In this document: piece by piece, positions 7,501-38,875 of the stretch | Numbering within the stretch: the stretch's first letter is position 1 | Layout: each line of letters begins with the position of its first letter | Virus record (IMG/VR): IMGVR_UViG_3300037400_005963 | Location: 32,001 to 96,000 of that record | DNA length: 64,000 bases | Reading direction: 5' to 3' (one strand) | DNA from: a virus | Lineage: Duplodnaviria; Caudoviricetes | Made by a program: the position numbers and the translations under genes | The notes under the pieces: generated by a model | What the model was told of the DNA's origin: nothing | Database searches by the model: none | The model's input: only the letters and a program-made list of their open reading frames with translations

Positions 7501-10500
7501 GTTCATTGAAAAGTTCTTTTAAACCGCCTACACTCAGGTCTCCATTCCTAACTAAATCGTCTAATATGACTGCCAGTTGATCTATGCCCGGTTTTTCTGG
7601 ACCTACTGTTCGAACAGTCTTACCATCATCTTCTAAAGTGTGGCGAAGACTCTCTACTTTATCGGGATCATCTAAGACATTTCCGTCCTTATCATAAACC
7701 TCTCCTCTCCTGACTCCTAATACCGCATCGGGTAGGGGTTCGTGATCTGGATCAAACTGCTTACCAATCGTACCATCGACACTATACCTTATTTGATCCT
7801 CCCTGACCCGTTCTTTTGCAGCTTCTCCTCTAAAATCAAGGAAAAAATCATAGAGTGATTTTAACTGTGATTCACTGAGCTCTCCATAGGCTCCCCTAGC
7901 TAAATCATCCAGTATAACCGCAAGTTGATTTATTTGAGGTTTTTCTGGACCGGCCGTTGGAACAGTTTTTCCATCTTCCTCTAGAGAATCCCTTAATATT
8001 CCAGAATTTAAATCATCTTTTATAGCTGAAGTGATGTGATCCACTTCCGTTTTTCCATCTTCCTCCAGAGAATCTCTTAATATTCCAGAATTTAAATCAT
8101 CTTTTATAGATGACGTAGTGTGATCCTGTTCAATAAGTCCACCAGTTTCTAGATAGTCTCTTAATTGATCCCTTTCATATAGATCTTCTTTTATTTTTGT
8201 ATCTGGATTCTGGTCTGACCTGATATACTGTTTTTGTTCCTCAGCTCTTTTGAGTATGAGCTCATCATACAATGATTTAGACGAACCTTCATCTAATGAT
8301 TCACTATCTCTTGCAAGATCGTCAAAAGCTATCGCAACTGCATCACCTTCGGGATTAGTTTGTATAGTTTTTCCATCCTCCTCTAGAGAATCCCTTAATA
8401 TTCCAGAATTTAAATCATCTTTTATTGAAGAGGAAGTATGGTCTCTTTCTATTAAACCATCTGACGCTAACTCATCTCTTAGTATTCCCGAATTAAAATC
8501 ATCTTTTATGGAAGAAGTAGTGTGATCTTCTTCTATTAGACCATCTAGTTCTAATTCATCCCTGAGTTTTCCGGAATTTAAGTCATCTTTTATGGGAGAT
8601 GTGGTATAATCTTCTCCTACTATACCATCGGATTCTAGCTCATCCCTTAGTTTTCCAGAATTTAGGTCATTTTTTATAGAAGAAGGATCACTTTGATCCT
8701 CAAGTACAAGACCGTCCAGTTCTAATTCATTCCTGAGTTTTCCAGAATTTAGATCAGTTTTTATAGAAGAAGGTTGACTTTGATCTTCTAATACAAGACC
8801 ATCAGTTTCTAGATTTTCCCTTAATTTTCCAGAATCTAAATCAGTCTTTATAGGAGAAGGTTGATTTTGATCTTCTAATACGTGGCCATCTAACTCTAGC
8901 TCTGATCTTAAACCATCACGTTCAAAGAAATTTTTTTGATCCGTATTTGAATTTTGATCACTTAATATATAGCCATCAGATTTTAAATTACTTTCAAGGT
9001 GACCATGACGGAGTTGAGATTTCTGTTTTTCATCGGATAACTGATCCTCCGTGATTAATCCGTCTGTTTCCAGTTCAGTTTTTAATCCGGTATTTCTAAG
9101 ATATTTCTTTTCTTCTGTTCCAGAATCCTGATCTTCGATAGATAATTCTTGTGAGGTTAATTCTTTAGCTAATCCTTCTTCTTTCAGCCTCCTTTTTTCT
9201 TGAGTCTCTATTTCCTGATCTTTGAGAGTATAACCATCTTCAGGCAATTTCTTTTTTAATCCTTTATCATGATATCTACCTTCATAGTTAAGAAACTCTT
9301 TCTCAGGGGTATTCGAATCTTGATCAGCAATAATCTTTCCCTCTTTAGATAATTCTTTTCTTAATCCACGCCCATTACCTTCATAATTAAAATACTCTTT
9401 TTCTGGAGTATTTGAATTTTGATCAGATATGGATTTACCAGTAGGATCTAATTCATCCCTTAACCTACCAGACTTTAGATCAATTTTAATGGGAGAATTT
9501 TCTGATTGATCTATAATATAACCATCCCAGGAGATTTCTTGGGTTAACTCATCTCTAGCAAGTTTATTTTTATCTGGTGTATCTAAATTCTGGTCTTTGA
9601 TAGACTTCTCAGTCTCTCTTAATTTTTTTTCTAAACCTTCCTCCCTTAGTATATATTTTTCTCTTGTTTTCGGTTCTTGATCGACCAATACTTTTTCGTC
9701 TTTACTCAACTTTTTTGGTAAACGAGAATTTTTCAGTAACTCTTTTAAATCCGTATGAGAGTTCTGATCTCGTAGAACCAATGCTTCTGGGAGAAATTCT
9801 TTTCTAAATAATCCCTTCTGCAGTTTATGTTTTTCTTTAGTACTGTTTCGATCTCCTGATCTTTTTCCTAATTTAGGTAAAATTTCAGATAAACCATTTA
9901 CTTTATATTTACGTTTTTCTTCAGTTGTCTCATCATCTTCTCTAGGCTTACCGTACTTTTCTAGACTAGACGTTAATCCCTTATCGTTTAAACTGATTTC
10001 ATAATTTAAAATCTTTTTTGGGTCGGTATCAGGTCTTTGATCTGAAATGACCGTTCCATCGCCTGGAATTGAATCGCCTAGTATTTTTTCAGTTTCAAGT
10101 CGATACTTTTCTTCGGTCCTTATTGAATCTTTTTCAATAAAACCATCTTTGTTTAATTTTGTTTTAAAACCTTTTTCCTCAAGATATGATTTTTCAACTG
10201 AATTTATTAAATCTATTAATAATGTTCCACCTTCCGGAAGAACTTTCCTCAAGCCACGGTCATTTAATCCATTATCATCCAGATATAGTTTTTCTTCTGT
10301 ATTCGGATCTTGATCGCTTTGAAGTAAACCATCTTTCTCCAGAGAATCCTCTAACCTATTTTTCTCATTGACTTGATGTTTTTGAGCAGTTAGATAACGG
10401 TCTTCTTCAAGCTCTCCGTCGGGTACCAATGTATCGATTAAACCCTCACGACGAAAATATCTCTTCTCTTCAGTATTAAAATCTTTATCTGAACCGGGCT

Positions 10501-13500
10501 TTCCTTGTAGACTCAAATCCTTTCTTAGTCCACCGTGTTTTTCATCATTAAGAAAATCTTTTTCTTCGGTGAACGGTAATCGATCTTTTCTAATGTAACC
10601 AAGTCGAGTTAATCTCTTCCTAAGTCCTCTATCTCTTCGTAATCTTCCTTCATAGTGAAAGAATAATTTTTCTAGAGTATATGGATCCTGGTCAGATATT
10701 GTTTTCCCATCAGATAGTATAAAATCTCTTAGACCCTCCTCACTGAAATAAATTTTCTCTTCGGTATCAGTTTCTTGATCATAGATTACATAACCATCAT
10801 CTAAGAGTTCATACCTAAGACCTTCTTTGGTATAAAAGAATTTCTCTTCAGTGTTCGAGTCTTGATCTTTTATAGCATGTCCATCTTTTAGGAGAGTATC
10901 ACGTAAACCCTCATCCTTTAGATAGTTTTTTTCCTCAGTATTCGAGTCTTGATCCTTTTTGGGGTATCCATCCTCTGGGAGAGTATCACGTAAACCTTCT
11001 TCCGAGAATAAAACTTTTTCTTCTGTACCTGCGGCTTGATCATAGATAGTATAACCATCTTTTTGAAGTTCATATCTAAGACCTTCCTTGGTATAAAATA
11101 TTTTCTGATCCGCGTTCGGTTCTTGATCGGGAAGAATATATCCATCACGGACTAGTAATTCCTTAAGACCTTTTTCTGCGAATTCATATTTTTCTACAGT
11201 TTCTGAATTTTGATCATAAACAATATACCCATCCTTCTGTATTTCAACAACAAACCCTTCTTTATTAAGATAGATTTTACTGTCACTTTGAGAATATTGA
11301 TCATTTAATACAAAACCACTGTCCTTTAGTGACTGAACTAAACCTTCTTCCGAGAAGAAAATTTTCTCTTCAGTTCCTGCATTTTGATCATAGACAATAT
11401 ATCCATCACTTTGAAGTTCATATAATAATCCTTCTTCGCCAAAATATATTTTTCTAGTGGTATCCGATTTTTGATCATATATTGTATATCCATCTTCCTG
11501 AAGTTCATATTTTAAACCATCCTCATCAAAATATATTTTAGAATCAGTCAATGGATTTTGATCACTGATAAAATGACCGTCCGATTCTAAAGCATTTCTA
11601 AGGTGTTCTGGTTCTTGAACAGAAGATTCTACTGGAGAATCTACGTAACTAGACAAATCTAATGGATTTTCTCCGAGTGATAATTTATCTATCTCATCCG
11701 AGAGTTGATCTTCTCTAGGATTGTTCAGAATTTCATCTTTTGATAAATTAGTTGGTAAGATTGTGGTTTTTTCATCAACATCTATTTTATCTAAAACATT
11801 ATCTAAGTCTAAATCCTCTTCACTATCATCTAATTTATCTAATACGTCGCTTAGACTAACTTCCTCTGAACTTTCTCTCAGCTTATCGAGAGTTAATCCC
11901 AGGGTTAATGAATCATCGTCAACGTTTGTTATTCCATCTAATACAGTCTCTAAACTATTAATACCTGAATCAGGAATATCCAAACTATCAACAGATTTGT
12001 CTAACTTCGACTCAGAATCGTCTATTACATAGCTGATTTTATTTTTGTCTAATTCTATATCAGAATCTACATTATTTAAATCAACCCTCTCGTCTCCAAG
12101 AGATAAATTTAATTTTTTATCTCCTTTTGGGAAATCTGGTGAAGCTGCATCTAATGGTGGATCTATAGTATCCCCAATAGGCTTGTCTACAAAAGAATCT
12201 AAATCTTTAACTCCAGTATCAATTAATTTTCCAGACTTATCTAAAAATTTGTCTAACTCTACCTGTTTACTATTCTCTATAGTTCCTTCTTTAGAAATTT
12301 TATTTTCTAATTCCAGATCTGATTTTTTAGTATTTGGTATTATTTCTTTATTTTCTTCAAGACTAGATCCCTTATCTGCTTTAATTGATTCCCGATATCT
12401 TGAAAGTTCTTCTTCAACTTCGTGTCGAAAGGGGACTTCTTGTCTCTCCTCCCCGAGAGACGCGTCTTTTTTAGGTATATCTATAGTATCGAGGGTATCA
12501 CTAAGATTCACCTCGTCATTTTGTGACATCTCAATTGGACTATCTAAGAACGAATTGAGTTGTGTTTCTTGAATAGTTCCTCGTACTATCTCTTTATCAC
12601 CGTTAAGCTTATCTATTTTTTCAACTCCGCGGATTTTATTAAGAATTCGTTTTCCCAAAGATTGTTCTTTTGGTGGATTTTCAATAAATTCCTTATTTTT
12701 TGGTAACTCATTGAAAGAATTCTCAACATTATCAACTTTTTCTAAATCACTGGATAATTTTTGGGGAGTTTGATCCTCAGACTTAATAATATTATCTAGA
12801 TAAGACGATAAATCTACTTTCCCCGAAGGCTTAAAATCAACTGTTTCTAAAGTTTGACTTAATTTTTCTGGTTTTTTAAAAGGATCGTGGATTCTTTCCA
12901 AACTTTTTCCTAATTCAGTTTCCTTCTCATCCTTCAGAACTTTATCCAATGTATTACTTAACGTGATCTCCTCAAGGGGATTTTTAATTTTATCTACTTC
13001 ACTTGATAAAACTGTTTTTTCTTTTACCCCACCTATTTTATCTAAGTCATTGGTAAGAACGACTTTCTTCTCTTCTCCAGAAAGACGATCCACTTCCTCA
13101 GATAAAACGTTTTCCTCCCCTGATAATTTTAAATTTTCAATCGATTTAGATAAAGAATCACTTTTCTTCTCTCCGCGAATCTTCTCTAAAGAATTAGATA
13201 AGATTTCTGAATCAGTTTTCTTATTTAATTTTTCAACTGAATCGGATAAGGTGGGATTTTTTTCTACGGCGGATATTTTCTCAACCGTACTTGATAACTT
13301 CTGTGATTCTTTAGTATTTCCTCCTATTTTCTCTACGTTGTTGGATAGAGAATTGGATTCCTTATTTCCTCCTATCTTCTCTACGTTGTTGGATAGAGAA
13401 TCGGATTCCTTATTTTCTCCTGAAATCTTAATCAGTTCATTGGTTAAAGATTCTTCTCCACTAAGAAACTGAATCTTATCAATAGAACTACTAAGTGATT

Positions 13501-13816
13501 CCAAGCTATCATTATTTCCTTCGAGCCTTACCCGCATCTGATCCAAGCGACTAAGTTTCTCGACGTCGATGGTTTCTTTCGTACCGGGCAAGTTTAAAAG
13601 GGGATTCTCACCTCCCATAAGTTTTTCCCTACTGGTATCTAGATGAGCTTTTTCTTCCCGATACGAAGGATCCATCATTTGACTCTCAGTTTCAAGCTCA
13701 GTTCTTTCTTCGAGATCTTCTTTTAGTGCACGAAGATATTTCTTTAAAGCACTAATCTCTTCTGGCTTGGTAAACTGATCACAATTCTCAGTATTATTCT
13801 TCTGTTCTTCTGTCAT
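4535..13816 (-). CDS. 3093-aa acidic repeat protein with a C-terminal tube/baseplate-like domain
   Basis: Continuous ORF; several classes of 16-27 aa repeats, then a globular domain and a Lys-rich tail. Confidence 0.6.
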   Translation of the reverse strand: MTEEQKNNTENCDQFTKPEEISALKKYLRALKEDLEERTELETESQMMDPSYREEKAHLDTSREKLMGGENPLLNLPGTKETIDVEKLSRLDQMRVRLEGNNDSLESLSSSIDKIQFLSGEESLTNELIKISGENKESDSLSNNVEKIGGNKESNSLSNNVEKIGGNTKESQKLSSTVEKISAVEKNPTLSDSVEKLNKKTDSEILSNSLEKIRGEKKSDSLSKSIENLKLSGEENVLSEEVDRLSGEEKKVVLTNDLDKIGGVKEKTVLSSEVDKIKNPLEEITLSNTLDKVLKDEKETELGKSLERIHDPFKKPEKLSQTLETVDFKPSGKVDLSSYLDNIIKSEDQTPQKLSSDLEKVDNVENSFNELPKNKEFIENPPKEQSLGKRILNKIRGVEKIDKLNGDKEIVRGTIQETQLNSFLDSPIEMSQNDEVNLSDTLDTIDIPKKDASLGEERQEVPFRHEVEEELSRYRESIKADKGSSLEENKEIIPNTKKSDLELENKISKEGTIENSKQVELDKFLDKSGKLIDTGVKDLDSFVDKPIGDTIDPPLDAASPDFPKGDKKLNLSLGDERVDLNNVDSDIELDKNKISYVIDDSESKLDKSVDSLDIPDSGINSLETVLDGITNVDDDSLTLGLTLDKLRESSEEVSLSDVLDKLDDSEEDLDLDNVLDKIDVDEKTTILPTNLSKDEILNNPREDQLSDEIDKLSLGENPLDLSSYVDSPVESSVQEPEHLRNALESDGHFISDQNPLTDSKIYFDEDGLKYELQEDGYTIYDQKSDTTRKIYFGEEGLLYELQSDGYIVYDQNAGTEEKIFFSEEGLVQSLKDSGFVLNDQYSQSDSKIYLNKEGFVVEIQKDGYIVYDQNSETVEKYEFAEKGLKELLVRDGYILPDQEPNADQKIFYTKEGLRYELQKDGYTIYDQAAGTEEKVLFSEEGLRDTLPEDGYPKKDQDSNTEEKNYLKDEGLRDTLLKDGHAIKDQDSNTEEKFFYTKEGLRYELLDDGYVIYDQETDTEEKIYFSEEGLRDFILSDGKTISDQDPYTLEKLFFHYEGRLRRDRGLRKRLTRLGYIRKDRLPFTEEKDFLNDEKHGGLRKDLSLQGKPGSDKDFNTEEKRYFRREGLIDTLVPDGELEEDRYLTAQKHQVNEKNRLEDSLEKDGLLQSDQDPNTEEKLYLDDNGLNDRGLRKVLPEGGTLLIDLINSVEKSYLEEKGFKTKLNKDGFIEKDSIRTEEKYRLETEKILGDSIPGDGTVISDQRPDTDPKKILNYEISLNDKGLTSSLEKYGKPREDDETTEEKRKYKVNGLSEILPKLGKRSGDRNSTKEKHKLQKGLFRKEFLPEALVLRDQNSHTDLKELLKNSRLPKKLSKDEKVLVDQEPKTREKYILREEGLEKKLRETEKSIKDQNLDTPDKNKLARDELTQEISWDGYIIDQSENSPIKIDLKSGRLRDELDPTGKSISDQNSNTPEKEYFNYEGNGRGLRKELSKEGKIIADQDSNTPEKEFLNYEGRYHDKGLKKKLPEDGYTLKDQEIETQEKRRLKEEGLAKELTSQELSIEDQDSGTEEKKYLRNTGLKTELETDGLITEDQLSDEKQKSQLRHGHLESNLKSDGYILSDQNSNTDQKNFFERDGLRSELELDGHVLEDQNQPSPIKTDLDSGKLRENLETDGLVLEDQSQPSSIKTDLNSGKLRNELELDGLVLEDQSDPSSIKNDLNSGKLRDELESDGIVGEDYTTSPIKDDLNSGKLRDELELDGLIEEDHTTSSIKDDFNSGILRDELASDGLIERDHTSSSIKDDLNSGILRDSLEEDGKTIQTNPEGDAVAIAFDDLARDSESLDEGSSKSLYDELILKRAEEQKQYIRSDQNPDTKIKEDLYERDQLRDYLETGGLIEQDHTTSSIKDDLNSGILRDSLEEDGKTEVDHITSAIKDDLNSGILRDSLEEDGKTVPTAGPEKPQINQLAVILDDLARGAYGELSESQLKSLYDFFLDFRGEAAKERVREDQIRYSVDGTIGKQFDPDHEPLPDAVLGVRRGEVYDKDGNVLDDPDKVESLRHTLEDDGKTVRTVGPEKPGIDQLAVILDDLVRNGDLSVGGLKELFNELLLKRAQQDYQGTISDQNPNTDAKDRLRNEENRDFPLTDLPLEEDGKIRPTIGTDKPQIDPLAVTLDNYARDNGSLTDEQAEQLYNNLLLTRAEQTRDELGRTLGMDKPGVDPLAIILDNFIRDSENFSEEELENLFNYWIQNRANSEISGIPIIDGDADSVAITLDNLRRGKTPLTEEQAKEVFEDLLVKRAEEQIKTGGKLPKSLAPRTEYSVKGPVAGQRSDKTRDYDYYFDPDSEKDLEVLTNAFKARAEHHVQKYSSYLLNYASSKDLGGWGQKLQSLLSKFTSSDLSATQVTRIEEDIKNLAKEYYKGEGKIYTTYSHMPGDLSAMLNANDYLRFIADEVRRGYNALNTKGQFWRTLDNFTGMKEHSVDMILWALIKARDMRDEVLKINRSRLPDSNVTQFSKSAEGDILDNARGLLASTVENATINLNAYFNDGRYVSKPDKSKPFNRPKKRDAEDPWKAQDIYTKTVTDFINERFEKKERPTPPGNDWRNTLGWTDPNMRISKEIDTSNLANKDGTVNLKSILKRSFVEAFNPDVKADLNSEINYFFKDQYMRGTGMWTTLEELTDSGYSEETIMTPSTFNQAIIDSSLMSHPGKYTKFRSLVDDMDDGTVWTLDSNSYWEVTIEPYLGWDNGYCSYLPSVEEMNAKNWIQHNVITSYNRWFPVVDFDLSRAKMNMKSLGIYDGEINFPGGIEFTNELRLTLVDDSYKSFRQFFEKSMYVSVYSSEIHKSQYYGYDNSEKFLGIQETFPDGLFTVENCKIDGKDGSYTIFNARGNKRINDVSYKVSPEIFDRARMIGIPNPNMITAVDKTSPCLALYKNITFRIKIYVFTPQLSTINRYDLLCVLKDMSEERKGSIEGSGDELELSFSIVGENPNPRWDLDRSKFTQEEAAWKNSPPKEEKKPEEKQKKDKKKESQKKDQKKDQKKDQKKPSTKKPSKRDNQTKPKKKETNRYRDSSQKHGGTYRTPPRGKTSKGGLAMD
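4689..4732 (+). repeat. 12-bp tandem repeat (CTTTCTTCTGAT, ~3.5 copies) encoding KKDQ
   Basis: Visible directly in DNA and as QKKDQKKDQKKDQKK. Confidence 0.85.
13319..13415 (+). repeat. 48-bp near-identical tandem duplication within the giant ORF
   Basis: Two copies of ...TCTCTACGTTGTTGGATAGAGAAT.GGATTCCTTATTT, encoding NKES.SLSNNVEKIGG. Confidence 0.8.
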
Positions 13817-22624: not shown

Positions 22625-23971
22625 CTAGTTATTAATTTCATTACCTCCCTGTTTAGGTTGGACTGCCTTTTCTTTAGAGTTCTGATACTTATATGCATCA
22701 GGATCTATTTTTTCCATCCCCTTTCTCATAGTATTCATAGCTTTAGTGTAAAGAACACTTCCTATTCCAATTGCAGGAGCTAATGCAACTATATTTGCCT
22801 TGGTGGGATGATTTTTTATCCAATTTCCAGCCTTGCTCAGAGAACTAATATTAGAATTTCCAAGACTCTTTCCAAAATTTTGTACATTCTTTGTCCCAAA
22901 TGAACCGAAAGAGCCTATTTTCATAGCACCGCCAGAAAGTGTCCTGCCCCTATGAGAGTTGAATGTTTGCCAACCAGATTTAGTTTTCTGTGGAATACTT
23001 TTTATTGTGCTTCCAATACCTGACAAAATACTAAACTGTTTTTGTCCTTGTCCTGGTTTTAAGGGCTTTTTTAATTTAGGACTTGGTTGAGATGTCGCTG
23101 CTATTTGATTCTTCAGCTGCTTTTTCTCGGCTTGATAAGATAAAAGACGTGGTGCTTCGAAACCAAATGTGATCGCAGGACCTAAAGCTTTTCCTAAAAC
23201 ACTATAAGCTCTTTGTTGACTATTCTGTTGAACTAGGTTTCCAGAATTATCTACTCCGAGATTATTCTTTTTCATATCTCGCTGAATAAATTTATTAACT
23301 AAATAACCGGCTGCAGTAATTTTAGCAGCTCCTTTAATAGTTCCTTTTATGGAGGAATTTATACCAGCAGCTTTACATGCTTTTCCCAAATCTCTACCTG
23401 CAACTCTCAGCTTTGCCCAATTCGGATTCAGAGATGCATAATTTCTTTGTGAAAATAGAAATTCGCTTTCTTTTTTCTTCTTCTTTTGTTGCTCTATTGC
23501 TTGTTGATCTGGTGGAAGTAAAACTTCAGCAGCTTTCTGGGCTGTATCAGGACTATTCTTCTCTGCTATTTTATTTAGTAGCTCATTTTGTTTTTGAACC
23601 GCTCTAGTTTGTCGATCCTGTGCAGCAACCTGTTTTCCATTCATTTTCTCCTGTTTCTTCATCTGATTGCTACTTTGTATCATCTGAGCGCCAGTTGTAC
23701 CAACCATAAGAGCTCCACTAGCTAATGCAATAGGAATACCAAAAGACTTTTCATACTGTCTACTTAATTCCCTAGTCTTCGCATTCATGGCCCTGGTTAC
23801 TTTATCCATTTCCTCTATCGTAGCCTTTCCCTGCTTTTCTGCTTCTTTCCCCTCTTTATGAGTTTGAATCATTCCATATGCAGGCAAGCCAACGAGAAGA
23901 CCATTTACGGCTAGATTTCCAGCAGACATTTTAGGGGATGCACTGAATATCTTTTTTCTAAATTTAGTCAT
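22625..23971 (-). CDS. Leader-tagged putative polyprotein (448 aa)
   Basis: Start moved to ATG 23971 (MTKFRKKIFS), removing overlap; internal KSFG, RNYA, RAYS, KQFS sites. Confidence 0.65.
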   Translation of the reverse strand: MTKFRKKIFSASPKMSAGNLAVNGLLVGLPAYGMIQTHKEGKEAEKQGKATIEEMDKVTRAMNAKTRELSRQYEKSFGIPIALASGALMVGTTGAQMIQSSNQMKKQEKMNGKQVAAQDRQTRAVQKQNELLNKIAEKNSPDTAQKAAEVLLPPDQQAIEQQKKKKKESEFLFSQRNYASLNPNWAKLRVAGRDLGKACKAAGINSSIKGTIKGAAKITAAGYLVNKFIQRDMKKNNLGVDNSGNLVQQNSQQRAYSVLGKALGPAITFGFEAPRLLSYQAEKKQLKNQIAATSQPSPKLKKPLKPGQGQKQFSILSGIGSTIKSIPQKTKSGWQTFNSHRGRTLSGGAMKIGSFGSFGTKNVQNFGKSLGNSNISSLSKAGNWIKNHPTKANIVALAPAIGIGSVLYTKAMNTMRKGMEKIDPDAYKYQNSKEKAVQPKQGGNEINN

Positions 23972-23993
23972 CACCTTTAAATTAAGTAATATT

Positions 23994-24296
23994 TTATTGA
24001 TCTTCGTAGCCTGAAGCTCTCTTAAGACCTTTACCAAGACCTTTTGTAGCGGCTGCACCAATACCGGCACCTATCAGCCAACCAAGGGGACCTCCAATTG
24101 CACTACCGATAACTCCAGTTCCCTGAAGAGCAGTTCCAATTGCACCTCCCAAATAGTGTCCGCCGAGAAGTCCACCACCAATAGCAGCAGGGGTAGAATC
24201 TAGTGCATTACCTACACCACCTGCTACGCCACCTGCAGTATCCTTCACGCCCTCTACAAGACTATAAGTCTTTCTTTTTAAAATATAAGTTGCCAT
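23994..24296 (-). CDS. Leader-tagged glycine-zipper protein
   Basis: Starts MATYILKRKTYS; almost entirely GxxxG repeats. Confidence 0.7.
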   Translation of the reverse strand: MATYILKRKTYSLVEGVKDTAGGVAGGVGNALDSTPAAIGGGLLGGHYLGGAIGTALQGTGVIGSAIGGPLGWLIGAGIGAAATKGLGKGLKRASGYEDQ

Positions 24297-28146: not shown

Positions 28147-29568
28147 TTAAAGACCTAAACCAAAGGTTACTTTCTGAACGAGTTCAGGAGCCATGTAGCG
28201 AACACCTTCCTGATAGTAAATACCACTTGCCATTTGAGTTGGGTTGTTGTAGTTACCAATAGTTGGGGTGTCAGTCAAAGGCATATAGATACCACGAGCC
28301 AGAGGAGCCATTTGGCCGTCCTGAGTCTTGTGAATAGCATAGAATGTACCCTTGCCTTCTTCTTCCTGGATGTCAGTTGAACGAAGTACTGGAATACCAT
28401 TGTACCAGCCAAGGAGGTCATTGATGTAAGTCATCTTAGTGTTCTTCTCCCACTTGCCGATGATACCACCCTTTTGGAACTGATTTGAAGCCTGGTTACC
28501 AGCTACATAAGCAGTAGTGTTAACACCCTTAACGGCCTTAGTTGCCAAAGAAGTTTCAACGTTGATCAGATAAGCATCGAACAAGTCTACTCTTGAACGA
28601 TAATCGTAGAAAGTAGCCTGCATTTCAGCCTTAGTAAGATCAAGGTCAGTCATAACATCGCCACGATAACCATCCTCAAGAGTCTTAACCAACTTGTAGT
28701 TAATAGTCTTGGTGTAGATCTCGCGGAGCTTAGTGAACAAGAAGGTAGCCATGTCAGAACCAGTGGCCTTCTTCATTGCGCCGAGAGCTGCAATGTTATA
28801 CTCAGCAACGAGCATATCAGGAACTGTGTTAAGAGCAATCTGTTGCATCTTAGCAATGAATCTCTTATCGTTTGCATGTGGACTGTCAGCACCCTTAGTG
28901 CAGCTAGGAGTACCAGTTACGTCTTCCTTACCTACGATCTTAATTGAAGTAGGAGCAGCAGCTAAATTGAACTCAACCTTACCGTTGAGGTAATTAACAG
29001 TACCGCTAGTCATAACGCCAGCAACTGCCATGAAAGAACCCTGACCATTATCGATCAATTCAGCCTTGCTACCGTCACCGTTCTCGATCTTAACGCGAAT
29101 AGTACCGGGGATAAGCTTTCTACCAATGATAGAAGTAACCTGCTGAGCAGCATCTACATCGAGTTCAAAGTAACCCATAGTGTTGATGTCCTGATAGTTA
29201 TCTGGACCCAGGTTAGGAATAACCTCACGAAGATCGGTTACACCAAGAACGTCGAACCAGTAGAACAGACCGTTAGGCTGATCAAAGTCGCGCTCAATTG
29301 ACATATAGCCAGCAAAAGAGCTAACATAAGAAGCAACTGAAGCGTTGAAGTACTGAGTGCTCAGAAGTGGAGTCTCTGCATAGCCAGAGAAGGTCTTCTG
29401 GAAAAGGTTACCTTCGCCCATACCGAGCATTTCTCTCATCTCGTCATTACGAGAGAACATCTTTGCGTATTCACGGCCACGAAGATTAGCGTCTTCGTTA
29501 GAAACCGAGCTAGCCCTCAAAGCCGAAGCCATCTGAGGGGTATTCATAAGTTCATTATAGTAATTCAT
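28147..29568 (-). CDS. Major capsid protein (T4 gp23-like, HK97 fold)
   Basis: 473 aa directly after protease and scaffold; DQPNGLFYW and GIYMPL...NPTQMASGIYY resemble gp23 motifs; strongly biased codon use. Confidence 0.8.
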   Translation of the reverse strand: MNYYNELMNTPQMASALRASSVSNEDANLRGREYAKMFSRNDEMREMLGMGEGNLFQKTFSGYAETPLLSTQYFNASVASYVSSFAGYMSIERDFDQPNGLFYWFDVLGVTDLREVIPNLGPDNYQDINTMGYFELDVDAAQQVTSIIGRKLIPGTIRVKIENGDGSKAELIDNGQGSFMAVAGVMTSGTVNYLNGKVEFNLAAAPTSIKIVGKEDVTGTPSCTKGADSPHANDKRFIAKMQQIALNTVPDMLVAEYNIAALGAMKKATGSDMATFLFTKLREIYTKTINYKLVKTLEDGYRGDVMTDLDLTKAEMQATFYDYRSRVDLFDAYLINVETSLATKAVKGVNTTAYVAGNQASNQFQKGGIIGKWEKNTKMTYINDLLGWYNGIPVLRSTDIQEEEGKGTFYAIHKTQDGQMAPLARGIYMPLTDTPTIGNYNNPTQMASGIYYQEGVRYMAPELVQKVTFGLGL

Positions 29569-29609
29569 TGTGTAAATTAAGTAATTAATTCGTTTATGTT
29601 TTATATAAT

Positions 29610-29639
29610 GAAGGCTCCTTGATTTCTCTCAGAGCCTTC
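29610..29639 (-). other. Hairpin between scaffold and capsid genes
   Basis: GAAGGCTC...GAGCCTTC; contains CTGAGA on the minus strand. Confidence 0.5.
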
Positions 29640-29648
29640 GGGTTTATA

Positions 29649-32597
29649 TTATTTCTTGAAATTGAGCCAAGTAGCTAATGTGTCTTCTGAGTCTGAGAAA
29701 GATTTCTCAGTAAACTGAGCTTCCTGAAGGTCTGGCTCTGCATCCTCTGCAGGAGCGGCTTTAGCTTCCATAATAGTAGCGGCAGCTTCCTCTGCAGCAG
29801 CCTTAATACTTTGAACAGCGGCAAGAGCTTTATCCTCTACCTCTTCTACAGTATGAGCAGCTGGAGCAACAGGATTACCGTTCTCGTCTACTTCTGCAGG
29901 TGCCTGAGCAGAAACTTCTTCAGCTGGAGCCTGTGGAGCAACAACGGGTTGAGCTACGGGAACAGCAACTGGTTTAACTGGAGCAGCCTGTGAGGCTTGT
30001 ACATCAGCAAAGAACTTATCTAAGGTAGAATAGTGCTTCTCCTCAGATTCATAATTGTTCCACTCCTCTTTTGAAATGAAACCATCATGGTTCTTGTCGA
30101 TTCTATCAAACTCATCAGTGCTCTTACCAGCTTTTCTCCACTCTTCCTTAGAAATTTGACCGTCCTTGTCCTCATCAACCTTGTCAAACTTATCTTCATC
30201 AACGTCTTCCTTATCCTCTACGGCAAGGTCTTCAGTCAACTTGTCAGCTTCCTCCTCAGAGATCTTAGTGAGTTCCATATCCTCTTCATCCTTAAGAACT
30301 GCCTTGGTGAATTCGCCAGTTTCTTTATCTTCTACTACAGCAGTTTCTGAATCTACTGGAGTAATTACTTCAGTATCATTCTCAATCTGCTCACCTTCCT
30401 CGATAGCCTTTTCAATTTCCTCTTGATCAGCTTCCTCAGAGAAGATTCTTTCCATGTAGGCAGTAAATTCCTCACCTTTAGAGAAGAATCTGGTTTCAGC
30501 TTCGTTACAGAAACTGTATTCCTTTTCCTCTTCCTTCTCGTCTTCATCAACGTCTTCCTTATCCTCTACGGCAAGGTCTTCAGTCAACTTGTCAGCCTCT
30601 TTCTCTGATATCTTAGTGAGTTCCATATCGTCCTCATCTTTAAGGACGGCTTTAGTGAATTCACCAGTCTCTTTATCTTCTACTACGGCAGTCTCAGCAT
30701 CTACTGGAGTAATTACTTCAGTGTCATTCTCGATCTGTTCGCCATCCTCAATAGCTTTTTCGATTTCGTCCTGATCGGCTTCCTCAGAGAAGATTCTTTC
30801 CATGTAGGCAGTAAATTCCTCACCTTTAGAGAAGAATCTGGTTTCAGCTTCGTTACAGAAAATACTGTATTCCTTTTCCTCTTCCTTCTCGTCTTCATCA
30901 ACTGCACTATCCTCATCAACTGCAATATCCTGAGTTAAGTTCTCAGCTTCTTCTTCACTAATTGGATGAACATTGATAGTATCTTCGTCAATGATCTTAA
31001 CCTTAGAGAAATCACCGTTCTCTTTATCTTCTACAACTGCAGTCTTAGAGTCAATTGGGGTAATGATTTCAGTGTCAGTCTCAATTTCATCTCCATTTTC
31101 GATTGCATCCTCGATTGCATTTTGTTCAGATTGCTCATTAAAGAGACGTTCCATGTAAGCATTTATTTCCTTACCTCTAGAGAAGAATTTAGTTTCAGTC
31201 TCATCACAGAAAACACTGTATTCTTTTTCTTCCTCATCATCTTTGGGGCACTCACATTCAGCCTTACCACACTCTGGGCAAGTTTCTTCCTCATCATCAT
31301 CTGCGAGAGGCTTAAACTCGTCTGACTCTACCTCCATTACTTTGAGGTCACTGGTAAGATCATCAAACTCTTCTTCATCAATCTGCTCAAGGCGAACATC
31401 ATCACCTGAAATAGTAGCCTTGGTAAACTCATCATTTACTTTATCCTCTACTACTGCAGTCTGAGCATCGACTGGAGTGATTATTAATTCATCTGTTTCA
31501 ATCTCATCTCCCTCACGAACAGCATCCTCAATTTCATCTTGAAGATCAGAAATTGAATTAACTGCGTCAGAGAATAATTTGCACATAACGGCAGTATTAT
31601 TCGAGAAAATTCTAGTTGCAAATACTGGTGCACCTACAAAATCCGAATATTCCTTCTGAAGCTCTGGTTCCTCTTCAGGATCAACATTGGCACCAAGACC
31701 ATCAATTAAACGCATGGCATAATCACGAGCATCTTCTTGATTATCAAAAATCTCAACTGCATCTACACCATCCTCAGTTAACTGATTTTTAAGTTGCTCT
31801 GCGCTATCTTCGTCGTACTCCTGAGCATCAACAATAATGTGATCGTAAGGTTGAACACCAACTACAAAGAGGGGCATGTAACCTTCTGGAGCATCTTCAT
31901 TGCTAAAATTCTTGCTATCTAATTCAGTTACAGTCATATCATCATCATCTAAAACAACCTTTGCCTGATCACCAGTAGTTTCATTGGTAACCACTACAGC
32001 ATTGTCCTCATCTTCTAGTTTTTCAATCTTAAGATCACCTACTTTTGCAGTTTCCTCTGATTCAATTACCTCAGAGAAAATTCTTTCGCAGAACTCCTGA
32101 TCACTAAAGATCTTGCTAACTACAGCATTGTTTGTTATTACGCTAAACTCTCTCTCCTCATCCTGATGTTCTTCATCAGTTTCAACAATAGACTTCTCAT
32201 GACCTGCTTCAGGATTGAGACCGCCGCATTCTAGATTAGGAGAAATAACGCAACCTTCTTTGAAATGGTCTTCTACATGTTCGTCAGGAGCACCAACCTG
32301 ATTACCCTCATGAACTCCATCCTCTGACGGGTGAAGGAACTTTTCCAGTTGTTCATCCGGAACAGCGATCAAGTCATAGGTATCAGCTTCGTCAGTAGCC
32401 TTCTGAGCAATAGTAACTTCACCATTTTCCTTGTCGGTAATAGCAACATCGCCATTGTCGTTAGCTCTTTCATATCTTACTTCTTCGGTATCAACTACGC
32501 CATTTTTCTGTGCATTCTTGATATCGTTATCTACTTGATTAGCCAGTTCTTCGTCTTTATTCGAGAACATGACTTCCATAAATCTTGTTAAAGCCAT
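29649..32597 (-). CDS. Acidic repeat protein, putative prohead core/scaffold
   Basis: Between protease and capsid genes; very D/E-rich; ~117-aa repeats; ~17 [KR]x[FY]S sites; EF-hand pair. Confidence 0.7.
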   Translation of the reverse strand: MALTRFMEVMFSNKDEELANQVDNDIKNAQKNGVVDTEEVRYERANDNGDVAITDKENGEVTIAQKATDEADTYDLIAVPDEQLEKFLHPSEDGVHEGNQVGAPDEHVEDHFKEGCVISPNLECGGLNPEAGHEKSIVETDEEHQDEEREFSVITNNAVVSKIFSDQEFCERIFSEVIESEETAKVGDLKIEKLEDEDNAVVVTNETTGDQAKVVLDDDDMTVTELDSKNFSNEDAPEGYMPLFVVGVQPYDHIIVDAQEYDEDSAEQLKNQLTEDGVDAVEIFDNQEDARDYAMRLIDGLGANVDPEEEPELQKEYSDFVGAPVFATRIFSNNTAVMCKLFSDAVNSISDLQDEIEDAVREGDEIETDELIITPVDAQTAVVEDKVNDEFTKATISGDDVRLEQIDEEEFDDLTSDLKVMEVESDEFKPLADDDEEETCPECGKAECECPKDDEEEKEYSVFCDETETKFFSRGKEINAYMERLFNEQSEQNAIEDAIENGDEIETDTEIITPIDSKTAVVEDKENGDFSKVKIIDEDTINVHPISEEEAENLTQDIAVDEDSAVDEDEKEEEKEYSIFCNEAETRFFSKGEEFTAYMERIFSEEADQDEIEKAIEDGEQIENDTEVITPVDAETAVVEDKETGEFTKAVLKDEDDMELTKISEKEADKLTEDLAVEDKEDVDEDEKEEEKEYSFCNEAETRFFSKGEEFTAYMERIFSEEADQEEIEKAIEEGEQIENDTEVITPVDSETAVVEDKETGEFTKAVLKDEEDMELTKISEEEADKLTEDLAVEDKEDVDEDKFDKVDEDKDGQISKEEWRKAGKSTDEFDRIDKNHDGFISKEEWNNYESEEKHYSTLDKFFADVQASQAAPVKPVAVPVAQPVVAPQAPAEEVSAQAPAEVDENGNPVAPAAHTVEEVEDKALAAVQSIKAAAEEAAATIMEAKAAPAEDAEPDLQEAQFTEKSFSDSEDTLATWLNFKK
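30200..30902 (-). repeat. ~350-bp near-identical tandem duplication inside the scaffold gene
   Basis: Two copies of DEDEKEEEKEYS..FCNEAETRFFSKGEEFTAYMERIFS...LAVEDKEDV; more diverged copies upstream. Confidence 0.85.
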
Positions 32598-32599
32598 TA

Positions 32600-33400
32600 T
32601 TATTTATTAATTATTATTTGATTACCATTTAAAATAATTACACCATTATCTACCAAGATATCTATAATATTCTCGGGAGCATCTGGGTAACGATTTCTTA
32701 AGATATCCATGAATTGCTTAATTCCCATACTCTTATTTCCATATTCATAATGAAGATCAGAAATAATACTAGAATCTTCAACCCACGAAGTATCACAGAA
32801 CTGACTCTCACGTGGAATAATACCATGAGCTTTCTTAATTAAAATAATGCCCTTTTCTGGTATATTTCCTCCTGCTTCAAGTCGTTCAATTATATCGGGT
32901 TTTGGATAATTTCCTTCAACAATATCTTTGTCTAAGTCCATTATCTTAGTAACCTGAACTATTAATTTAGAAAAAGTTTTTTCCATAGCATATGCAGATC
33001 CAGAAATTTCTACTTTATCTCCCTGCATATTAGCAAAACCCTTTTCTAACATATATTCAGATTTATCACTGAATGTTTTTTCAAATTCAGCTTTTGTCAT
33101 TGATTTGCCTGAAAATTCCTTAAGACTTTTCTCATAAGGGCTAAGGAAAATGCTAAACTCTCTTTCCTCTGTTCTAACTGGTTCTGGTACCTGTGGCTCC
33201 GAGTAAGGAATAAACTTAATCCTCATCCTTGTTCCTCCACAGTTTGGGCAAATCATGTGAGAAGGGTGTTCTGCACTTTCAACCTGTGCGCCGCAGTCTT
33301 GACAAATTAAAGTTCTCAACTGCATTCCCTCTTCCCCATTTCTTTCCTCGGAGAATAATTTCTTTCGAGGAGTTGTACTAAATAATTTCAATCTTTTCAT
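32600..33400 (-). CDS. Zn-ribbon protein with multiple KxFS sites, probable prohead core component
   Basis: CQDC...CPNC; KLFS x2, REFS, KEFS, KTFS x2. Confidence 0.6.
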   Translation of the reverse strand: MKRLKLFSTTPRKKLFSEERNGEEGMQLRTLICQDCGAQVESAEHPSHMICPNCGGTRMRIKFIPYSEPQVPEPVRTEEREFSIFLSPYEKSLKEFSGKSMTKAEFEKTFSDKSEYMLEKGFANMQGDKVEISGSAYAMEKTFSKLIVQVTKIMDLDKDIVEGNYPKPDIIERLEAGGNIPEKGIILIKKAHGIIPRESQFCDTSWVEDSSIISDLHYEYGNKSMGIKQFMDILRNRYPDAPENIIDILVDNGVIILNGNQIIINK

Positions 33401-34656
33401 TCCTTTCCTTCCTCCTCGTTTTCAATGTTTTCTTCTACATCCAAGTTTTCAGGCATGGGTGAAGATCCAAATACTTCATCCACCATTGATTGTGTAAATT
33501 CTGTATATGCCTCTTGAAGTTTCTTCATGCGCATAGGACTGAGATAACCTTTTTTATTTATCTCAATCATTGCCATCTTATAGGGAATCTGCAACTTCTG
33601 GGCTGCTACTCTCACCTGTTTTCCTAAAGAACTGCCACCAATTAAAACATTGATTTGCTTTCCATTAGTTACATCACTAGTAATCTGTTTAAAAATATCC
33701 AAACAGTCAGATGTAAACATGGATTTTAAAATCCTAAGTTCTTCTGGATCCATTCTCTCTTGACCACCTAATTGTTTAACTAATTGTTTGTAGTCTAAGA
33801 AAAGACGACGGAATCTCATTCTTGGTGAGAATTTAGCAAAACGAAGTCTTTCTCTAACTGTTGCAGCAGAGAAGGTCTTTTCTTCCTCCACCTTCTCATC
33901 CGATACTTCCCCAATGAATTCTGCGCTACTATTTGCACTAAATTCCTTTGCTTTAAGGATTGTATATTTTCCTTCTATCTTACTCGACTTAGCAATATCC
34001 TGTACACCGAACTGAGAGAGATCTGAGAAAGTTTTAACCTTCATTCCTTCATATTTAACATCTTCATTTCCCTCAGAAAAAGTCCTAACTCGGTCCTCTA
34101 CATCGGCGATCAAGTTACCTTCATCATCCTCAACAGAAACAACCTGAGCTTTCTTCCAAGAAGGATTAAGAGTTAAATCGAATCCCTTTAGGTTTACCAT
34201 TTTCTTAAGAATATCTCCATTTGTTGTACTATCCCAATATCCTAAGATAACAGCAGAACATCCAATTAAGCAACCACTTGAGAGAAGTCCCTTGAGACGC
34301 TTAATATTCTCTGCTGCTTGAGTATCAAAATTCTTTTCATCTAAAGTTTTAGCATAAGCGTACAACCAACCATCACTACCACATTCAAGACCAGTGACAT
34401 AGTGAGTTGGAGCAGCTTCGCCAACAATTATCATCAAATCATCCTTTCCGACCGTCTTCGATACTGCCGGATTAAGATTTTTCGTACCTGTTCCCACGTT
34501 TCTAGGATAATGACTCATAGTACCAAGCATAGAATGAGAAGCTATGGCATTTTTATAAGTCTCTGTTGCCATAAATTGCTCAACTATCTCTCGGCTTATC
34601 CTACTAGAATCACTTGCGGGTTCATTAAACGAAAGAAGTTTTACTTTAAATTGCAT
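33397..34656 (-). CDS. Prohead maturation protease (T4 gp21-like) with C-terminal extension
   Basis: LGTMSHYP...PTHYV...LKGLLSSGCLIGCSAVILG...FDLTLNPS parallels gp21-family motifs; position between portal and scaffold. Confidence 0.75.
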   Translation of the reverse strand: MQFKVKLLSFNEPASDSSRISREIVEQFMATETYKNAIASHSMLGTMSHYPRNVGTGTKNLNPAVSKTVGKDDLMIIVGEAAPTHYVTGLECGSDGWLYAYAKTLDEKNFDTQAAENIKRLKGLLSSGCLIGCSAVILGYWDSTTNGDILKKMVNLKGFDLTLNPSWKKAQVVSVEDDEGNLIADVEDRVRTFSEGNEDVKYEGMKVKTFSDLSQFGVQDIAKSSKIEGKYTILKAKEFSANSSAEFIGEVSDEKVEEEKTFSAATVRERLRFAKFSPRMRFRRLFLDYKQLVKQLGGQERMDPEELRILKSMFTSDCLDIFKQITSDVTNGKQINVLIGGSSLGKQVRVAAQKLQIPYKMAMIEINKKGYLSPMRMKKLQEAYTEFTQSMVDEVFGSSPMPENLDVEENIENEEEGKE

Positions 34657-36919: not shown

Positions 36920-37190
36920 CCTCTTTTTCCTCCTTTAATCTCTTTTTGAGTTTATGATGAGCATAAGAAGAGACACCTGCCACGCCTAAACCTGCTAGAG
37001 CTGCTGGACCGAGAACTTTATTATGGTGAAGAGTTTTTGTATTTCCCTTAGATTTTAAATACAAATTCATTAGATGCGCTCCACCTGCTATCCCTCCGGT
37101 TGCATACCCGGCAGTTTCAAGGTTTCTAGTTAAATCGAGAAGTTCTTCCCTTCTTTCCCTCTGTTTCTCTTTATCTCTCTTTGTTATCAT
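36900..37190 (-). CDS. Small protein with two Gly/Ala-rich hydrophobic segments
   Basis: Starts MITKR; AGYATGGIAGGA and VLGPAALAGLGVAGV. Confidence 0.6.
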   Translation of the reverse strand: MITKRDKEKQRERREELLDLTRNLETAGYATGGIAGGAHLMNLYLKSKGNTKTLHHNKVLGPAALAGLGVAGVSSYAHHKLKKRLKEEKEDVNKEK

Positions 37191-38875
37191 ATACGTTCTT
37201 CTTCATTTGGTGGAATTAACGTGCTAGGATCAATTCCCTGTTGTTCGCACATTGCACTAAATTTCGCCTGAGCAAAATTAGAGTACATTGTTATAGTTTC
37301 ATCGGTTATCATAGATTCCGTGTTTGGATCGATATCTTTTATTAATCCTTGAATATAACCTAAAAATGATTTTGGATCAATTAAAGGAGTAGCTGCCTCC
37401 ATAACTTGAAGTGCGTTAGTTAAGATACCAGAGATTCCATTAACAAGACCTGATATTGATTCGCTCTGATTGATTTGATTGTTATACTCAACACTAGTTT
37501 TCTCTGATATATGAAGCTGAACACGACCTGGATCTAAATCATCATTATAGAGAATTTTATAAAGATTAATCACCAAATCCTGAACCGACTCTTTTATACC
37601 TACCATAAAACCAGTCACCCTAGAATTAGCTCGTTCTGACTGTTGAAGAATTTGCCATTTCGAACCACTAGTAGAATCAAGTATAGTAGCAGGTATTCCT
37701 AAAGGACTAAGAACCGCAGCTCTACAATTATCAAGAGACTGCATTATATCTAAAAGCTTGTCCGATAATTTGTCTAAGGGAAGCATCGAATTCTTATTTC
37801 CCATAGTTGCATTATAGTCGGGTACAAACTTAGCGGATTGAGATAATGCATTCTCAATAAAAGAGATTGCATCAAACTGGCTTGTTAAGAAAGAGGCTAG
37901 TTCATTTGTATTATTTGCTAACTTAGTAGTTCGAGCACATAGTTCCTTTGCTGTTTCCAAGGGAACTGATTTATCGAACTGAAGTAGAAATAGTTGCGTT
38001 GAACTAAGATCACGAAGAGAAATAAGTGATACTAAGAGCTCTTTTATAATTAACTCTTTTACTTTTAATATTAATGAGTAAAATAAAGGTTCTCCAGCAC
38101 TATATGAATGCTGACTAAGTACTTTTTTTCTATTCGAATTATCTTCCTTCTTTCCAAAAGTCGGCTTTATCTTCTTATCTTGCTTGTTCTTTTCATCCAA
38201 ATCATTAATCAGACGAAGACTGTTTGATCCTAAATTGAAAGCTTCCTCTCTGGGGATTTCATAAATTTTTCCATCTTCTCCCCTGGCTAGGTAAGACTCC
38301 TCCATTTCACCATCTTTATTCCTAGTCTTCTTAGTGACAACAGAAACAGGATCATATAATTCTTCTAATCTAAACTTAAGATGCCCCAGTTCATCTCTCG
38401 ACTTCAAAAGCATCCCAGAGTATTGACCATAGAACACCATCTCTTTTACGTGATCTCTAATATAGGTCAATATATTTAGGTCTTTTATTAAGATCTCATT
38501 AATTCTTTCCGTCTTAGCTTCATCCTGATTGCCTTCCTCATCAACTATTGTAATTAACTGTTTTCCATTATCCTCTAAGAAATTAATTACATAATCAGTA
38601 AAGAAATTAGTGGCTAGCTTAACAACATCTAATAATTGATAACCCTTTAATTCATCAACTCTCTCATAATAGAGGGATAAGAGGTTCGAGGGAGAAGATG
38701 AACCTAATAGTGGACTTCTTCTGTTACCTTGTCCCCACTTTCCCGCTCCACCTGTAGAACCTATCTGAGAGTATCCACCAGATCCACGAAATATGTTAGA
38801 CCTAAGTGGGACTCTGGATGCCCCTACTGCGAAAGAGCCGAATATTTTTTGAAATATTCCTTCACTTTTCTTCAT
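37187..38875 (-). CDS. Portal protein (T4 gp20-like)
   Basis: 562 aa between terminase and protease; EMVFYGQ, GEPLFY and VLSPLGIPATIL resemble portal motifs. Confidence 0.75.
   Translation of the reverse strand: MKKSEGIFQKIFGSFAVGASRVPLRSNIFRGSGGYSQIGSTGGAGKWGQGNRRSPLLGSSSPSNLLSLYYERVDELKGYQLLDVVKLATNFFTDYVINFLEDNGKQLITIVDEEGNQDEAKTERINEILIKDLNILTYIRDHVKEMVFYGQYSGMLLKSRDELGHLKFRLEELYDPVSVVTKKTRNKDGEMEESYLARGEDGKIYEIPREEAFNLGSNSLRLINDLDEKNKQDKKIKPTFGKKEDNSNRKKVLSQHSYSAGEPLFYSLILKVKELIIKELLVSLISLRDLSSTQLFLLQFDKSVPLETAKELCARTTKLANNTNELASFLTSQFDAISFIENALSQSAKFVPDYNATMGNKNSMLPLDKLSDKLLDIMQSLDNCRAAVLSPLGIPATILDSTSGSKWQILQQSERANSRVTGFMVGIKESVQDLVINLYKILYNDDLDPGRVQLHISEKTSVEYNNQINQSESISGLVNGISGILTNALQVMEAATPLIDPKSFLGYIQGLIKDIDPNTESMITDETITMYSNFAQAKFSAMCEQQGIDPSTLIPPNEEERI

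Follow-up and report, generated by a model that had tools for sequence, protein, structure and literature searches.

A K/R-x-F/Y-S motif as the probable cleavage code of a T4-like head maturation system in an uncultured jumbo phage from the cattle gut

The window analyzed here is a stretch of 64,000 nucleotides, positions 32001-96000 of the 156.5-kb IMG/VR virus record IMGVR_UViG_3300037400_005963, the completeness of which was judged at approximately 42%. The source is an uncultured jumbo phage of the cattle gut. A long structural module on the minus strand occupies positions 255-46637 of the window and has the order: portal-like gene, small genes whose products bear a common N-terminal leader (tag), protease, Zn-ribbon core protein, acidic scaffold and capsid protein. 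The present work concerns the last four of these genes (28147-34656) and a short motif recurring in their products, in its strict form [KR]-x-[FY]-S, which probably marks the sites where the protease cuts during head maturation. The genes and the features within them, with lengths in amino acids (aa), are as follows.

28147..29568, minus strand: major capsid protein, 473 aa, placed in the gp23 family by its profile
29386..29397, minus strand: capsid site 2, KTFS at residues 58-61, where a cut during maturation is predicted, so that the mature protein would start at S61 (or G62)
29452..29463, minus strand: capsid site 1, KMFS at residues 36-39, in the predicted propeptide; KMFS, KMFA or KIFS in 118 of 121 homologues
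29649..32597, minus strand: acidic scaffold-like protein, 982 aa, 17 strict sites, corresponding in position to T4 gene 22
32600..33400, minus strand: Zn-ribbon core protein, 266 aa, with KLFS 5, KLFS 14, REFS 80, KEFS 94, KTFS 108 and KTFS 141
33397..34656, minus strand: prohead protease gene, 419 aa, with a gp21/assemblin-fold domain (1-188), a linker (189-264) and a helical C-terminal domain (265-419)
33865..34092, minus strand: four-site linker of the protease, with RTFS 191 (34075-34086), KTFS 208 (34024-34035), KEFS 237 (33937-33948) and KTFS 260 (33868-33879)
34177..34179, minus strand: Asp160, candidate third triad residue, invariant in 36 homologues and paired by hhalign with an Asp of T4 gp21
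34255..34257, minus strand: Ser134, candidate nucleophile, invariant in 36 homologues and paired by hhalign with T4 gp21 S140
34510..34512, minus strand: His49, candidate catalytic histidine, invariant in 36 homologues and paired by hhalign with T4 gp21 H85, in an LGxLxH motif

The motif counts were compared with 5000 composition-preserving shuffles per protein, a control proposed in an earlier sequence-only reading of this DNA, and the result was a strong excess in the head core: the capsid, acidic, Zn-ribbon and protease proteins together have 29 sites against 1.0 expected. The acidic protein contributed exactly 17 of them (0.24 expected) and the Zn-ribbon protein 6 (0.21 expected), numbers which were reached in none of the 5000 shuffles, followed by the protease with 4 (0.35 expected, P=0.0004) and the capsid protein with 2 (0.23 expected, P=0.02). 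The sequence-only reading had counted about 17 and six sites in the first two proteins, KMFS 36-39 and KTFS 58-61 in the capsid protein, and RTFS, KTFS, KEFS and KTFS right after the protease domain; all of these were recovered, the last four at residues 191, 208, 237 and 260. Its impression of few sites in the sheath and in a 3093-aa protein also proved accurate, since the latter (window 4535-13816) has none against 2.25 expected and the 961-aa sheath-like protein a single one against 0.63. Both labels used there, capsid and sheath, held after profile comparison and inspection of ESM Atlas clusters; those nearest to the 961-aa protein carry tail-sheath families. The enrichment of head over tail proteins, on which that reading depended, was evident, as the tail/baseplate block outside the window has 8 sites against 7.9 expected. 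Seven large virion proteins without a leader have 2 sites together (5.8 expected), the plus-strand genes 4 (3.8 expected) and the remaining genome 9 (13.4 expected). The deficit in the large virion proteins may mean that proteins to which the protease has access avoid the motif, although alone it is not significant.

The count in the acidic protein is inflated by repeats, as roughly 8 of the 17 sites belong to three modules of approximately 116 aa; outside the repeats this protein is still far above chance, and so are the other three head-core proteins. Among the 33 [FY]S dipeptides of the four proteins, 29 have K or R two residues before them, and an unbiased scan for enriched three-residue patterns returned K.FS (z 23.7) and R.FS (z 18.0) as the top two. 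The glutamate-type motifs [LI]-x-E and [SAG]-x-E were at or below expectation in all four head-core proteins, and the herpes-type [VLI]-x-A-S was not enriched in them either. Phage T4 served as a positive control: its known [LI]-x-E code was enriched in gp22 (16 sites vs 5.8 expected), gp21 (7 vs 2.6), gp23 (8 vs 4.0) and likewise in gp68, but not in the T4 portal, and the shuffle ranking was the same as in the phage studied here, with a weaker signal in T4. No [KR]-x-[FY]-S was present in the head genes of E. coli phage IME392, a gp23-family relative from outside the clade to which the present phage belongs.

The protease gene is located between the gene for a 562-aa portal-like protein and the scaffold and capsid genes, both in the window and in three related loci (L002-L004; proteases 44-46% identical), where the gene order and the N-terminal leaders are kept. 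Pfam and PHROGs searches with ten proteins of the module gave nothing for the capsid, protease, portal-like and sheath proteins.

Judged by its sequence profile, the 473-aa protein is a member of the gp23 family. The capsid family matched the capsid protein of phage IME392 in hhalign with a probability of 96% (E 1.8e-9, 171 columns), the match spanning only the C-terminal third, and the IME392 protein passes Pfam Gp23 (PF07068) with 26.5 bits at a cut-off of 24.4. Gp23 is also present in 22-39% of the members of the nearest ESM Atlas clusters (score 0.98). Neither the capsid protein nor 20 of its homologues matched PF07068 at E up to 1, PHROG had no match for the protein, and hhalign of the capsid family with T4 gp23 gave a probability of 1.9%, so that the predicted cut is not alignable with the T4 65/66 site. 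The AlphaFold2 (AF2) model was poor (predicted local distance difference test, pLDDT, of 46) and unsuited to a fold search. Hundreds of metagenomic proteins, from contigs of up to 427 kb, share 75-98% identity with the capsid protein. K[TN]FS is found immediately before the invariant GY[AS]ETPLLSTQYF core in 121 of the 121 homologues, and the spacer between the two capsid sites varies from 17 to 22 residues. The capsid proteins of the three related loci have 2-3 sites of the relaxed form.

The acidic protein has a leader-like N-terminus (VMFS, residues 9-12), and its sites occur as doublets or triplets 10-14 residues apart, separating modules of approximately 57-140 aa. Its homologues in the three related loci (50-57% identical) have 14-20 relaxed sites, most of them at matching columns of the alignment, and the counterparts of the Zn-ribbon gene have 4-8; the Zn-ribbon itself was recognized by weak Pfam matches at residues 33-60. 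Residues 802-847 of the acidic protein (30057-30194) represent a canonical pair of EF-hand loops (Pfam EF-hand_5, E 1.4e-10), an insertion specific to this phage and not present in three aligned relatives. A Cys-rich insert, CPECGKAECECP (31215-31280, approximately residues 440-455), is likewise absent from three aligned relatives.

By its modelled fold, the 419-aa protein is a gp21-type serine protease, as the sequence-only reading had supposed. The AF2 model, based on 36 homologues, had a pLDDT of 80. The top Foldseek match of residues 1-190 was T4 gp21 (5jbl; E 8e-4, template modelling score, TM, of 0.60 by target), and VIA-align with T4 gp21 gave a Z of 12.2 (root-mean-square deviation 2.5 Å over 133 residues), well above the unrelated rows; the Z with herpesvirus assemblins was 8-9.8. 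In sequence, hhalign matched the protease to T4 gp21 with E 5e-4 and a probability of 30%. The His, Ser and Asp residues follow each other in the order of the gp21 family, for which an H-S-D triad has been reported (PMC5694885). At E up to 1, no gene of the phage matched PF03420 (Peptidase_S77, in a clan with S80 and herpes S21), PHROG had no match for the protease, and no PDB sequence matched the alignment profiles of either the protease or the capsid protein.

The linker behind the catalytic domain has 3-5 strict sites in each of 121 protease homologues, and in 120 of them no strict site was found outside the linker beyond the first 15 residues. With the K/R, F/Y and S positions designated P3, P1 and P1', respectively, the columns of 120 aligned homologues had K/R at P3 in at least 98%, F/Y at P1 in at least 99% and S at P1' in 86-100%, while P2 was free (six or more residues occur) and the spacers varied. 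The mean conservation was 0.92 in the motif columns versus 0.47 in the other linker columns. In the model, pLDDT fell below 50 at residues 191-197 and 244-265; the conserved residues 265-419 are folded into a helical bundle. When 1.84 billion representatives were searched with a profile, 231 protease relatives (clusters at 50% identity) were obtained. The full-length distant ones (E 1e-30 to 1e-56) have clusters of K-x-F-S right after the protease domain, and in the split forms a single K-x-F-S site closely precedes the C-terminal domain, at about residue 97-107 of the protein that bears this domain.

The C-terminal helical domain (33400-33864, residues 265-419) is a separate protein in distant relatives (proteins P0314-P0375), so that the two parts of the protease are fused in this clade but occur separately in others; the distant relatives also include protease domains of 160-180 aa that stand alone. 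At the N-terminus of the protease (34630-34641, residues 6-9) the sequence is KLLS here, and 61 of 121 homologues begin with M..K.KLFS; these residues are placed by the model within the first beta-strand at high confidence. Self-activation of T4 gp21 involves loss of nine N-terminal residues (PMC9958956). A complex prediction for the protease domain with capsid residues 25-110 had a score of 0.02.

The motif also ends a leader of approximately 10 residues (site within the first 14 residues) in 24 of the 47 structural-module genes, compared to 4 of the 143 other genes. The leader consensus is M-I-[IV]-[LFK]-[RK]-x-K-x-[FY]-[STAG]. An N-terminal leader of approximately 10-20 aa, common to unrelated proteins and ending in the motif, corresponds to the type of the capsid-targeting sequence (CTS) of T4. 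The sequence-only reading had proposed that the same site releases cargo from such leaders; the site does end the leader, and the release would be a consequence of the cleavage considered below. The portal-like protein (37187-38875) has QKIFG at residues 9-13, with KMFS, KLFG or KIFG at this place in the three related loci, so that it may also be trimmed. At 22625-24070, the longest open reading frame begins with GTG, and a typical leader, MTKFRKKIFS, begins from its Met34; the true start is probably at 23971, and the protein has two additional internal strict sites.

The region 28147-34656 was present in bovine-gut metagenomes of approximately 12 studies. Near-identical contigs from two metatranscriptome libraries cover most of it, where DNA carry-over is possible and transcription is thus not proven. 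In the whole record, a Shine-Dalgarno-like trimer is missing before 127 of 164 genes, whose upstream regions are A/T-rich, which suggests a Bacteroidota-like host: A/T-rich gene starts without Shine-Dalgarno are typical of Bacteroidota, a group not known to have the L27 extension or the Prp protease which removes it. A tblastn search of GenBank phages with the protease and two of its distant relatives as queries gave no match, hence there is no cultured relative with proteomics. In the literature, no description was found of an aromatic-site prohead protease, of head processing in rumen jumbo phages or of the [KR]-x-[FY]-S motif, and we know of no studied relative that cuts at such a site. The paper on the Jug gut jumbo phages does not discuss leaders and cut sites (PMC12880540).

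The motif occupies the same places as the sites of T4, i.e. the junction of capsid propeptide and core, the whole length of the scaffold, the region after the protease domain and the ends of the leaders, and, since neither the Glu-type nor the herpes-type motifs were enriched, it is read here as the cleavage code of the protease. Studied proteases of this fold read L/I-x-E (T4), S/A/G-x-E (phiKZ and SPN3US) or V/L-x-A before the bond and S after it (herpes assemblin). We consider it probable that the module encodes a T4-like head maturation system whose protease cuts at K/R-x-F/Y-S, between the aromatic residue and Ser, and not after Glu; within this reading, the substrate code would be [K/R]-x-[F/Y]-[S, less often T/A/G]. 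The aromatic/small-residue specificity put forward in the sequence-only reading agrees with the enrichment of this motif and the lack of it for the Glu-type motifs, cutting itself being a prediction. The scissile bond is most likely between F/Y (P1) and S (P1'), by analogy with the family, which reads P3-x-P1 with a free P2; this fits K/R, F/Y and a small P1', and the mature capsid protein is accordingly predicted to begin from S61.

In T4, gp21 takes 65 residues off gp23, breaks down gp22, gp67 and gp68, clips capsid-targeting leaders of approximately 10 aa and cleaves itself (PMC9958956). By analogy, the protease of the present phage would be incorporated into the prohead core in zymogen form, with the helical C-terminal domain holding it, and would release its catalytic domain through self-cleavage at the four linker sites. 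It would then chop the acidic scaffold at 17 sites and the Zn-ribbon protein at 6, remove approximately 60 N-terminal residues of the capsid protein and clip the leader of about 10 residues from some two dozen small cargo proteins.

Several points weigh against this interpretation. What is observed is the presence and conservation of the motif, and everything beyond this we infer; the same is true of the cut and its exact bond, which might also be after S. The protease is below the Pfam S77 threshold, with no Pfam family at E up to 0.01, and, as the hhalign probability to gp21 was only 30%, the triad is assigned mainly from the matching fold and from the invariance of the three residues. In the AF2 model, sites 208 and 237 are within predicted beta-strands of moderate confidence instead of disordered segments. 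KTFS in the capsid protein might be conserved for structural reasons, since the entire protein is 75-98% conserved, and the predicted scaffold fragments of up to approximately 140 aa exceed the small peptides expelled by T4. Finally, the record represents about 42% of the genome, so that another protease is possible.

Among the alternatives, the best surviving one, although unlikely, is that the motif is an uncleaved or partly cleaved docking signal, which binds a pocket on the capsid interior, the scaffold or the protease and loads scaffold, protease and cargo in the manner of encapsulin cargo-loading peptides. Such a role is consistent with the multivalent, regularly spaced doublets and triplets in the scaffold and with the motif ending a tag common to otherwise unrelated cargo proteins; the basic context of the leaders versus the acidic scaffold suggests binding, and the T4 capsid-targeting sequence does direct proteins to the core (PMC9958956). 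However, docking leaves unexplained both the placement at domain boundaries (capsid propeptide/core, protease/C-terminal domain and the split forms) and the intact-looking protease always encoded beside these genes, while P3-x-P1-P1' with a free P2 is what this protease fold reads. Docking and cleavage can, moreover, coexist, as in T4.

Cleavage by a host protease has a precedent in Staphylococcus aureus, where Prp acts on ribosomal protein L27 as well as on the capsid and scaffold proteins of phage 80alpha; it cuts between F and A and takes 13-14 residues off the N-terminus, in phage head proteins a short leader (PMC5744158). The leaders described here also end in F/Y and a small residue, but beyond this pair the context differs by the K/R two residues before the aromatic position, the sites are mostly internal rather than N-terminal, and the motif tracks the phage protease family across very distant phages, even inside the protease. 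Furthermore, the 156-kb record has no match to PF04327 (Prp), this family matched only Bacillus, Lactococcus and Thermotoga among the control genomes and not Bacteroides, and the lack of Shine-Dalgarno in 127 of 164 gene starts points to a Bacteroidota-like host, all of which makes a Prp-type explanation very improbable. It is just as hard to credit that the motif is read by another phage protease encoded in the missing 58% or so of the genome, with the gp21-like protein being its substrate or having another specificity, because, despite the record being only about 42% complete and CLP_protease being among the frequent Pfam domains of the Jug gut jumbo phages (PMC12880540), no ClpP, S78 or S77 Pfam match was found in the 156 kb, the genes of the head module are all present in one uninterrupted series, a single protease among them at the canonical place, and the motif is kept in stand-alone gp21-like domains and C-terminal-domain proteins of distant phages.

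Cleavage by the gp21-like protease at K/R-x-F/Y-S is therefore the preferred interpretation. It appears reasonably likely that it applies to an entire clade of uncultured jumbo phages from gut and rumen (231 protease clusters at 50% identity), in which the gp21 fold would have come to prefer an aromatic residue over Glu at P1, followed by Ser in the P1' position, making this the first T4-type prohead protease not cutting after Glu, and in which one code would both load and release some 25 or more small cargo proteins, so that the packaged and ejected proteome could be read from sequence. Should the cuts prove real, the gp21/assemblin fold would allow a wider range of specificities than could be expected from the phage enzymes studied so far, as these (T4, phiKZ, 201phi2-1 and SPN3US) all cut after Glu (PMC5694885). 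A simple sequence rule would then be available for listing the proteins that reside inside the head, and are probably ejected, in abundant uncultured jumbo phages of gut and rumen. In addition, a ready peptide substrate would be at hand, together with a tag of approximately 10 residues to load foreign proteins into such capsids. The T4 targeting sequence has already been used for loading foreign proteins into capsids.

In comparison with known systems, T4 has most in common with the present one. The order protease-scaffold-capsid is shared (T4 genes 20-67-68-21-22-23), as are the gp21 protease fold (MEROPS S77) with aligned His, Ser and Asp, the gp23-family capsid protein with a predicted propeptide of approximately 60 residues here versus 65 in T4, the site-dense scaffold, the sites within the protease, the leaders of about 10 residues ending in a site and the enrichment pattern in the shuffle test. 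On the other hand, the motif is K/R-x-F/Y-S instead of L/I-x-E, with Glu motifs not enriched here; the protease has an additional 155-aa helical C-terminal domain behind the four-site linker; folded modules and a pair of EF-hands are present in the scaffold, which has 982 aa compared to 269 aa in T4 gp22; about two dozen proteins are tagged versus a handful in T4; and there is no sequence similarity at the Pfam level.

The phiKZ gp175 and SPN3US gp245 enzymes (MEROPS S80) are likewise gp21-like proteases of jumbo phages, for which C-terminal self-cleavage has been described (PMC5694885); the copies of the motif just past the catalytic domain might serve the same purpose here. Many head and ejection proteins are processed at one short motif in those phages (PMC5694885, PMC10052503), as is predicted here, but their enzymes cut after Glu (S/A/G-x-E) and their propeptides are mostly long (>100 aa) without a common leader (PMC5694885), while the protease of the present phage has no sequence match in the GenBank phage collection. 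The Prp system resembles it in the short N-terminal leader common to several proteins and in a bond between F and a small residue (PMC5744158), and differs in being a host cysteine protease of Firmicutes with another leader sequence and N-terminal sites only, whereas this phage carries its own serine protease, has mostly internal sites and a host that looks Bacteroidota-like. The herpesvirus assemblin (MEROPS S21) has the same fold (Z 8-9.8), and the layout of its M and R sites, P3-x-P1 followed by the cut and Ser at P1', matches the motif found here. It differs in having Ala at P1 and a hydrophobic P3, compared to the predicted aromatic P1 and basic P3, and in the third catalytic residue, which is His in herpesviruses and an invariant Asp here, as in the phage enzymes. 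The system of this phage is predicted to be an extension of a well-understood one and not a new kind of system.

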